DNA from: a virus
Lineage: Duplodnaviria > Heunggongvirae > Uroviricota > Caudoviricetes
Reading direction: 5' to 3' (one strand)
Length of the DNA stretch: 27,162 bases
Virus record (IMG/VR): IMGVR_UViG_2526164602_000031
The number at the start of each line of letters is the position of its first letter. The first letter of the stretch is position 1. Position numbers: made by a program. Below, one piece after another: positions 24,001 to 27,000 of this stretch.

Positions 24001-27000
24001 AGAGATATTCAGGTGCACATATAATACAAAGAATCACGGTATTTCATTCGGGGAGGGGTGTATCTATCTTGATATGGATATGATACTTACAGGTAAGCTT
24101 GGTACAATATATGCTCCTGATGGAATTTCAATGCATGTGGATCGTCGTAATGATAGTGTAAATATTGAAAATAGTGCAATAATTGTTAACCGTAGTAATC
24201 ATCCTGCTCTACTTGAGGGACTTTCTTTTATGCATAGTAAAGTAGATGCTCATCCATATTATGATGGTTTGGGGAAAGGAGTTAAGAAATATTTTAATTT
24301 TACACCATTACATAATTATAATCATTTTTGTGACTTTATTGAGTTTAACCACCCTAATATAATCATGAACACAAGTCAGTATACATGCAGTTCATGGTAA
24401 ATGAATTTGATATAGTTTATTTTGTTGTAATAAATGATTTGCAGGGTATTAGATATAAACATGAAAATTCCCTCATTACAGTCCAACTTCAACTTTTCCG
24501 CCCCGGCAGGATACTCTGCTCCCATTGCTCCTAATCGTGCTGAAAATGCCTATGCGGATTACGTTTTGGATATAGGTAAGCGAATACCACTTTCCGCAGC
24601 AGATTTAAGCAACGTATACGAAAGTGTAATACGCGCCGTCCATGACAGCCGTAGCAGGCTTATCGATCAGCATACAGTCGATATGATCGGCAACACTGTA
24701 CTTGATGCTTTGAGCCGATCACAGACATTTCGTGATGCCGTAAGCTATGGCATTCATAATGAGAAGGTACACATTGGTTGCATTAAATACAGAAACGAAT
24801 ACGAGCTTAACGAAGAATCTTCTGTCAAAATTGATGATATTCAATCACTAACCTGTAACGAATTATATGAATATGATGTCGGGCAAGAGCCAATTTTCCC
24901 CATTTGCGAAGCAGGAGAAAACGATAACGAAGAGCCTTATGTCAGTTTTAGTGTTGCGCCAGATACTGACTCTTATGAGATGCCATCGTGGCAGGAAGGA
25001 CTGATTCACGAGATTATTCATCATGTTACTGGATCTAGCGATCCATCTGGAGATAGTAATATAGAGTTAGGACCCACCGAGATTCTCGCACGTCGTGTCG
25101 CTCAAGAACTGGGATGGAGTGTTCCCGACTTCAAAGGATATGCAGAGCCAGAACGTGAAGCTCATCTTAGGCTACGTAACCTGAATGCCCTTCGACAGGC
25201 TGCCATGAGGCATGAAGAGAATGAGAGGGCTTTCTTCGAAAGGCTGGGTACGATCAGTGACCGATATGAGGCGAGTCCTGATTTCACAGAGTATTCCGCT
25301 GTGTCTAACATAGGATACGGATTTATCCAGCAACATGATTTTCCTGGATTGGCTATCAACGATAATTTACAGGATGCAAATCAGATCCAACTGTATCATG
25401 GCGCCCCTTATATTTTTACATTTGGGGATGTGGACAAACACAATCAGCAATGATTCGTCTTTGCAGTGACATAAGGTTACTATTCATACATTTTAACGGA
25501 GTTGATGATGGGTAATCGTGCAACATTGTATGTAAAGGCAATTCCCCTAATTTTACTGTAGTAAGTGAACATGGCCGGAACGAGACTATCAGCATCATCG
25601 GCTTCGGCCCAGTAAAAAGAGGCTCGGAAAAATGCACAATAGGCATCACACGTCATGCATGGATTCAAATTGTACATAATTCAACAGTACAGCTATAAAT
25701 CGTAAAGAAACTGCAGTACGTTGTGCACAGAAAAGTACCGTGATTCACTATTGTACAGGTCCATTGCAGCAACAATATTTTGTGAATTTTGCGTGAGAGA
25801 AAGAAAAGGAATAATTTGTATATAAACAATTGATTAATCAATTGCTGGAAAATAAATAAAACTGATAATTAAAGGCTTAAAGCTTGTATTAAATCATATT
25901 TAAAATTTTTTGTTTTAAATGCAGCGTGTTATTGTGTTTTTTTTAATCTATCGGTCTGGTACTTGTAATCAGTGAGTATATCGCACCACTTCAGGATGCT
26001 GCAGATTTAGATATTGCGACGGATGAGCAGACATCGTTACTGGCGGCATGGAAGCAGTATCGTATGCCGCTCAATCATGTTGATACGTCTGTATCTCCAG
26101 ATATCGAGTGACCGGTAATACCTGCGTTATAGTTCGTAAACGTTCGTTTGATGGGATGCTGGAAGGATGAATTAGTTGCCAGATACAAAAAGCAAGAGTT
26201 CATTTCTAATTTTTGTTGCCATGTTAGGGGGGATGTTTGTTAAGGAAATTTAGATGGGTTTATTTTGAAGGTTGAAATGTATGTTATCGCCATATTCTGT
26301 AAATTTGGGATGTTCATGGAATTCTTTAACCAGAAACCTGACTTCGCCTGATAATCGTGTTTTATCCTCTGTAAGGGATGCTGCCGTTCATTCTGATAAT
26401 GGGGCGCAAGTAAAGGTTGGCAACAGAACATATCGTGTTGTTGCCACCGATAATAAGTTTTGCGTTACAAGAGAAAGTCATAGTGGTTGTTTTACTAATC
26501 TGTTGCACAGGCTGGGATGGCCTAAGGGGGAGATTAGCAGGAAAATTGAGGTCATGCTGAATGCATCACCAGTGAGCGCTGCTATGGAAAGAGGCATTGT
26601 TCATTCGAACAGACCTGATTTACCTCCTGTTGATTATGCACCGCCAGAGTTACCGAGTGTGGACTATAACAGGTTGTCAGTACCTGGTAATGTTATTGGC
26701 AAAGGGGGGAACGCTGTAGTATATGAAGATGCTGAGGATGCAACAAAAGTCCTGAAGATGTTTACTACATCTCAAAGCAATGAAGAGGTGACAAGCGAAG
26801 TTCGTTGCTTCAACCAATATTATGGTGCCGGGAGTGCAGAAAAAATATATGGCAATAATGGTGATATTATTGGTATTAGAATGGATAAAATAAATGGAGA
26901 ATCGCTTTTAAATATTTCGTCCTTGCCAGCACAGGCTGAGCATGCTATTTACGATATGTTTGATAGACTGGAGCAAAAAGGAATTCTTTTTGTCGATACA

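Follow-up and report, generated by a model that had tools for sequence, protein, structure and literature searches.

The effector gene nleH1 stands at the end of a 27,162-nucleotide viral stretch (IMG/VR record IMGVR_UViG_2526164602_000031; here called the window), which covers the late region and right end of a lambdoid prophage of Escherichia coli O157:H7 at the bio/ybhB site, taken here to be CP-933K/Sp3. Between nleH1 and the preceding effector gene, nleC, lies a perfectly self-complementary 18-mer, CAATTGATTAATCAATTG (25827–25844), which a preliminary description made from the sequence alone had put forward as a possible operator for a dimeric DNA-binding protein. The palindrome is probably incidental: it would have arisen by chance in non-coding junction DNA of very high AT content, and would act only as part of a generic tract to which H-NS and StpA bind and which Ler and Pch remodel.

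The location and exact self-complementarity of the palindrome were borne out by a sequence check, as was its distance of about 450 nt from nleH1 (−454 to −437 relative to the ATG at 26281). It is the longest perfect palindrome of the window, where the runners-up measure 12 bp, and it has a single match there even when up to 3 mismatches are allowed. Markov simulation nonetheless gave a probability of 0.11 that a 27-kb window contains one or more perfect palindromes of this length or longer, and natural prokaryotic and phage sequences unrelated to the locus, 268 kb in all and retrieved on account of another motif, held five other perfect palindromes of 18–20 bp, about 1 per 54 kb. Given these simulated and real-DNA rates, the palindrome is not beyond chance for a genome that is scanned window by window.

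The surroundings of the palindrome are a patchwork. Genes in the window run in the order lysis, terminase, head, tail, tail fibre, nleB2, nleC, spacer, nleH1; past the window edge come nleD and then ybhB, with attR after nleD. The spacer, which extends from the nleC stop at 25453 to the nleH1 ATG, is 100% identical to E. coli O157:H7 chromosomes. The preliminary description of an AT-rich spacer of about 0.8 kb was right as to length (827 bp), but GC content is 37% overall and only a 149-bp core is very AT-rich; nor is the spacer plain, for two annotated gene relics lie inside it. The components are as follows (types and alleles are explained below).

24434–25453, plus strand: nleC, type III effector zinc metalloprotease (annotation)
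25564–25677, minus strand: 5′ relic (first 38 codons) of a YkgJ-family cysteine-cluster gene (RefSeq annotation)
25678–25806, minus strand: upstream DNA of the dead YkgJ-family gene (homology to K-12 ykgJ and type-C loci)
25807–25955, no strand assigned: 149-bp AT-rich segment (21.5% GC) with the palindrome (allele-A and allele-B loci only)
25827–25844, no strand assigned: perfect 18-bp palindrome, two CAATTG hexamers on either side of ATTAAT
25956–26111, plus strand: 3′ relic (last ~50 codons) of a tail-fibre-assembly gene (RefSeq annotation)
26112–26280: nleH1-proximal region
26281–27162, plus strand: nleH1 (nleH1-1), type III effector kinase (annotation)

The YkgJ-family relic has 74% amino-acid identity to an intact prophage copy, and the tail-fibre-assembly relic 66% to residues 136–185 of intact Tfa. 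The DNA upstream of the dead YkgJ-family gene has its first ~70 bp in common with K-12 ykgJ, and its sequence as far as ...TTGCGTG in common with type-C loci. In intact prophage ends tfa is followed by a convergent ykgJ; because the two relics are divergent in the window, the AT-rich stretch is seen to lie at the junction of two modules. This mosaic (tail fibre, nleB2, nleC, gene relics, nleH1, nleD, attR), with alternative junctions in other strains, is that of the exchangeable effector loci of lambdoid prophages, where effector cassettes are said to lie downstream of tail-fibre genes, as Tobe et al. reportedly described in 2006; the resemblance explains the context of the palindrome, not a function.

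Across strains the palindrome is neither widespread nor held constant. The 231 bp around it were found in 340 of 5426 complete E. coli genomes, 337 of which carry a near-identical sequence (allele A) and three a divergent one (allele B). Carriers of allele A include O157:H7, O55:H7, O157:H16, O2:H16 and some dog and pig strains; allele B is represented among the genomes by strain EC12, and is also found in five viral or metagenome contigs and in phage 2B8, the sole match in a scan of a phage collection. In allele B the 18-mer reads CAGCTGATTAATTCATTA, with 5 of 18 positions changed and 5 of 9 pairs broken, so that ATTAAT alone is still symmetric. Identity between the alleles is 78% in the left flank, 68% in the palindrome, 44% in the right flank and 90% from 25906 on, so that conservation is no higher in the palindrome than around it. 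The right flank in question, the 61 bp at 25845–25905, may have been replaced as a patch, or may be AT-rich DNA that evolves fast. The fall of the five changes in five different pairs was considered as a sign of selection and rejected (P = 0.47 for five random changes); the pattern is uninformative because allele A was ascertained as perfect and allele B is 28% diverged.

Other nleH loci lack the segment. At the commoner type-C junction, ykgJ-upstream DNA (...TTGCGTG) is joined straight to the tfa relic without the AT-rich segment; in O103:H2, where the segment is also missing, nleH is preceded by a truncated nleC and a tfa relic; and nleH1-2 loci have only the last ~70 bp before the ATG in common with the window. 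In the nleB2-nleC-nleD locus of enteropathogenic E. coli (EPEC) E2348/69, the spacer and most of nleH are deleted, the deletion running from 73 bp after nleC into nleH and leaving a 168-bp 3′ nleH relic (locus L138, 1501–1738). Since the segment is missing from most nleH loci, the palindrome is not a general attribute of nleH. The loss of symmetry in allele B and the absence of the segment from most nleH loci amount to the lack of conservation that the preliminary description had named, together with unchanged nleH1 expression upon deletion, as speaking against an operator. One gut metagenome contig (L109, 29–2000) has K-12-type yagU and an intact ykgJ on one side and the AT-rich segment of O157 type, with nleH1 and nleD, on the other, with a switch point within ~110 bp common to ykgJ 5′ ends; it was considered as an intact-ykgJ/allele-A locus and left out of the evidence, its coverage being ~3x and its assembly probably chimeric.

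Searches for a regulon, a sequence family or a regulator were negative within their scope. Among 185,579 species representatives, the exact 18-mer occurs at 76 loci, none of them in Enterobacteriaceae; the viral contigs that carry it comprise three of O157 type and five unrelated ones. Of the 81 exact matches counted (76 in genomes and 5 in viral contigs not of E. coli), 54 fall within long open reading frames and encode QLINQL there, and some of the others are the centres of longer terminator-like hairpins. In ~20 Microcoleus genomes (e.g., loci L012, L013, L016, and L020) the 18-mer stands at apparently one orthologous position in a ~575-codon open frame, flanked by GGCGATCGCC, and is conserved coding sequence unrelated to the E. 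coli locus. The 12-bp core has no second copy in the window at up to 2 mismatches, and no related half-site pairs were found there. No further copies that could make up a regulon occur in the window (at up to 3 mismatches; the scan did not extend to the remainder of the O157 genome), and the wider search that the preliminary description had called for, as carried out with the exact 18-mer over the species representatives and viral contigs, gave neither regulon nor family. The window, which holds phage late genes and effectors only, contains no regulator gene; the sole match to the 18-mer or its cores in the searchable full-text literature is an unrelated primer; Rfam scans placed no family over the palindrome; and a promoter and terminator scan found no promoter-like or terminator-like site at it.

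Published work on nleH1 bears on the region as a whole. When 120, 283 or 531 bp of nleH1 upstream DNA were fused to gfp in O157, expression fell step-wise, and the 120-bp fusion gave less than 25% of the expression of the 531-bp fusion; unlike nleH1, nleH2 required only 113 bp upstream (Holmes et al., PMC3299786). The nleH1 reporter was negligible in K-12 and lowered when ler or grlA was mutated; for the interval from −283 to −531 the authors proposed either an activator or remodelling by way of Pch, and they inferred an O157-specific regulator (PMC3299786). The interval corresponds to the following coordinates.

25750–25997, no strand assigned: −531 to −283 interval, removal of which lowers nleH1::gfp in O157 (PMC3299786; coordinates computed from the ATG at 26281)

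The palindrome makes up 18 of the 248 bp of this interval. Unchanged nleH1 expression, the second observation that the preliminary description had expected to speak against an operator, is not what the published deletion gave: removal of the interval, palindrome and 230 other bases together, lowers nleH1::gfp (PMC3299786). ChIP-chip analysis located H-NS, StpA, PchA and Ler on the nleC-nleH1-nleD region, with lower H-NS/StpA occupancy where PchA and Ler bind or are expressed (Fukui et al., PMC4764244). Both the −531 to −283 requirement and the occupancy by these four proteins are region-level results of those papers, and the nucleoid-protein option in the preliminary description gains from the occupancy, and from two inverted copies of AATTGA, an indirect support at the level of the region.

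At the level of individual bases, the palindrome contains matches to the sites of several DNA-binding proteins, including integration host factor (IHF).

25823–25835, minus strand: exact IHF core match WATCAANNNNTTR (AATCAATTGTTTA), over the left arm (consensus scan)
25828–25833, plus strand: AATTGA, identical to the hexamer that the Ler C-terminal domain contacts in its LeeH complex (sequence identity)
25838–25843, minus strand: second, inverted AATTGA (sequence identity)

The structure of the Ler C-terminal domain was solved on LeeH GCGATAATTGATAGG, where the contacted bases A6–A11 are AATTGA; the determinants are a narrow AATT groove and then a TpG step, and CGCAATTGCG was the best-bound 10-mer tested (Cordeiro et al., PMC3219716). 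Sequence of the form described for Ler and H-NS sites (AATT, then TpG, with no TpA inside the tract; PMC3219716) stands at 25828–25833 on the plus strand and at 25838–25843 on the minus strand. These two AATTGA (CAATTG) units are inverted, with 12 bp between their centres, and the spacer has no other AATTGA, the count of 2 comparing with 1.3 expected (P = 0.37). To the H-NS consensus tCG(t/a)T(a/t)AATT the palindrome has two overlapping matches at 8 of 10 positions, TTGATTAATC on both strands; matches of this quality number 48 in the window and 6 in the spacer. The single exact IHF core match in the window compares with 1.0 expected and is no sign of function. Allele B is without all these matches: AATTGA becomes AGCTGA in one copy and AATTAA in the other, which thereby has the disfavoured TpA step, and the IHF match is gone.

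Several observations weigh against an incidental origin. In the same Markov simulation, a palindrome of this length is improbable in the 827-bp spacer taken alone, at its own composition (P = 0.004). Allele A is nearly invariant across unrelated serotypes; with ~8 variable sites in the whole allele-A spacer among diverse strains, too few for constraint to be detected, this constancy reflects recent spread. The palindrome holds both inverted Ler-contacted hexamers and the window's only exact IHF core match. Finally, the −531 to −283 interval that includes it is needed for full nleH1::gfp expression (PMC3299786), and the bases behind this effect could include the palindrome. That the palindrome is the cis-element that makes nleH1, and not nleH2, depend on −531 to −283, whether as a paired, inverted nucleation site for Ler and H-NS or as an O157-specific activator site, is nevertheless doubtful.

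Among the rival explanations, the strongest, though still unlikely, is that the palindrome is a high-affinity nucleation site for the H-NS family (the silencers H-NS and StpA, the anti-silencer Ler), in which the two inverted CAATTG/AATTGA units would serve as minor-groove sites from which oligomers spread over the AT-rich tract; it would then account for part of the −531 to −283 effect, to which IHF bending at the overlapping core could contribute. The exact identity of AATTGA with the Ler-contacted 6 bp, the confinement of both spacer copies to the palindrome, the overlapping H-NS matches and the IHF core at 25823–25835 argue for it, as do the reduced nleH1 expression in the ler mutant, the requirement for −531 to −283 (PMC3299786) and the drop in H-NS/StpA occupancy of nleC-nleH1-nleD when PchA and Ler are expressed (PMC4764244). 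However, H-NS and Ler recognise groove shape rather than strict sequence, so nearby A-tracts would do equally; AATTGA and IHF core counts are at expectation; allele B has lost both AATTGA units and the IHF match, yet nleH1 still lies downstream; and ChIP-chip resolution is too coarse to pick out the palindrome. Compared with established H-NS/Ler sites (LeeH of LEE2/LEE3, PDB 2LEV), the palindrome shares AATT followed by TpG, an identical contacted hexamer and a setting in horizontally acquired AT-rich DNA, but it matches the H-NS consensus at 8 of 10 positions, its matches are at chance number and they are lost in allele B; perfect two-fold symmetry is a feature of the palindrome and not of those sites. 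Likewise the candidate IHF site has an exact core WATCAANNNNTTR in AT-rich DNA in common with IHF sites, but occurs at a chance-level count and is lost in allele B.

A dedicated operator, on which a homodimeric, O157-specific activator or repressor would act on nleH1 from about −445, is improbable. The perfect two-fold symmetry of the 9-bp arms speaks for it; the reporter was negligible in K-12, and the authors of the fusion study placed an activator site upstream of −283 and inferred an O157-specific regulator (PMC3299786). The operator suggested in the preliminary description is all the same unsupported: the palindrome is single-copy in the window, with no related half-site pairs there, is absent from the enterobacterial species representatives, is not conserved in allele B, is missing from most nleH loci, has no regulator gene in the window and is not described in the searchable literature. 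Nor does any of the known operator consensuses compared fit. An FNR box has the form TTGAT-N4-ATCAA, and the palindrome has the same inverted half-sites, but as TTGAT-TA-ATCAA, with a 2-bp instead of a 4-bp spacer, which would put the half-sites on different helical faces for an FNR dimer; compared by inspection with their consensuses, Fur, ArgR, LexA, CRP, the phage 434 and lambda operators and the dif and att cores were rejected, none fitting in sequence plus spacing. Slightly less probable again is a relic cis-element, either the operator or promoter of the leftward YkgJ-family gene or DNA near an old prophage end. The palindrome does lie 150–167 bp ahead of the ykgJ-like start codon, where two modules of prophage origin meet, and YkgJ-family genes in other strains sit at prophage right ends beside attR; but intact ykgJ-family loci (the K-12 chromosome and prophages in ETEC1703 and R1) have only ~70 bp of upstream DNA in common with the window and no palindrome, and were rejected as the source of the segment. 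The relic of a mobile-element end suggested in the preliminary description holds loosely, inasmuch as the site is a recombination junction between two prophage-derived gene relics, but marks of an end of an insertion sequence (IS) or miniature inverted-repeat transposable element (MITE) are missing: neither terminal inverted repeats nor direct repeats on the flanks are present, the arms abut without a spacer, the spacer between nleC and nleH1 holds no transposase relic, and the sequence is single-copy per genome place, not multicopy as an IS/MITE end would be. Least probable is a structural element, be it a cruciform in supercoiled DNA or a hairpin that acts as a terminator or RNA element. The palindrome folds better than shuffled sequences (z = −2.5), but as single-strand DNA it gives a weak hairpin (−4.8 kcal/mol) with a stem of 7 pairs, of which 2 are G-C, no terminator-like site was found within 25300–26400 and no Rfam family overlies it; moreover, 18 bp is short for stable cruciform extrusion.

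An incidental palindrome would have arisen in the exchangeable effector region at the CP-933K/Sp3 right end, between the dead YkgJ-family and dead tail-fibre-assembly genes. Its two-fold symmetry would be under no selection, and no dedicated dimeric regulator would read it; we infer that the symmetry itself is functionless. Any effect would then be exerted as one stretch of the ~150-bp AT-rich tract, which, like other horizontally acquired AT-rich DNA, would be coated by H-NS and StpA; Ler and Pch would remodel the coated tract, and the tract would in this way modulate nleH1 transcription from a promoter-proximal block ~70–100 bp upstream of the ATG.

26185–26257, plus strand: conserved nle promoter-proximal block, common to the nleB2 upstream region (23250–23325) and other nleH loci

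This is the sole block common to the nleB2 and nleH1 upstream regions, and homology between nleH1-1 and nleH1-2 begins at 26210. The palindrome lies ~350 bp upstream of the block and has no counterpart near nleB2 or in the nleH1-2 and O103 nleH loci. A nle regulatory inverted repeat (NRIR) has reportedly been found essential for nleH1 and nleB2 expression in EPEC, in work ascribed to Garcia-Angulo et al. (2012, J Bacteriol 194:5589). The NRIR is described as an inverted repeat in a “highly conserved sequence” upstream of nleH1 and nleB2 (reviewed in PMC7142665), and the shared block appears to fit this description. The palindrome resembles the NRIR in being an inverted repeat upstream of nleH1, but differs in that the NRIR belongs to sequence conserved among several nle genes, whereas the palindrome falls outside the shared block. 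In the nleB2 and nleH1-2 loci the block opens with a near-perfect hairpin, AAAACCGGAGxCCGGCTCCGGTTTT, which is degenerate in O157 nleH1-1 (AAAAAGCAAGAGTTCATTTCTAATTTTT). Possibly this hairpin is the published NRIR, in which case its decay in nleH1-1 might have to do with the need of nleH1 for more upstream DNA than nleH2.

Further observations concern the flanking genes. The Rfam family IS009 (RF02111) scores below threshold on the tail-fibre-assembly relic of the window (25916–26092) and above the gathering threshold within an intact tail-fibre-assembly coding sequence and at the K-12 locus between yagU and ykgJ (L003, 2445–2643; L080, 1682–1880; K-12 locus L137, 2112–2311); given these matches, this small RNA family looks like a model of the tfa 3′ end. 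The K-12 order yagU-[tfa relic]-ykgJ is the same arrangement as a prophage right end. RefSeq starts nleC at ATG 24434 (339 aa), and an internal ATG at 24461 would give 330 aa; the familiar NleC N-terminus, which is presumably MKIPSLQSNF..., begins at the internal ATG, and the annotated start may thus be 9 codons too early.

As a by-product, the analysis maps the nleC-nleH1 spacer precisely and resolves it into a patchwork of gene relics for which strains show three alternative types of junction. By itself, perfect self-complementarity over 18 bp is no evidence of an operator when it occurs in AT-rich junction DNA of a prophage. If the palindrome were the cis-element upstream of −283, allele-B strains would regulate nleH1 differently; and if it were a real regulatory site, it would explain the published promoter-deletion result and would help to show how the Ler/Pch/H-NS circuit of enterohaemorrhagic E. 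coli takes control of an effector gene outside the LEE.

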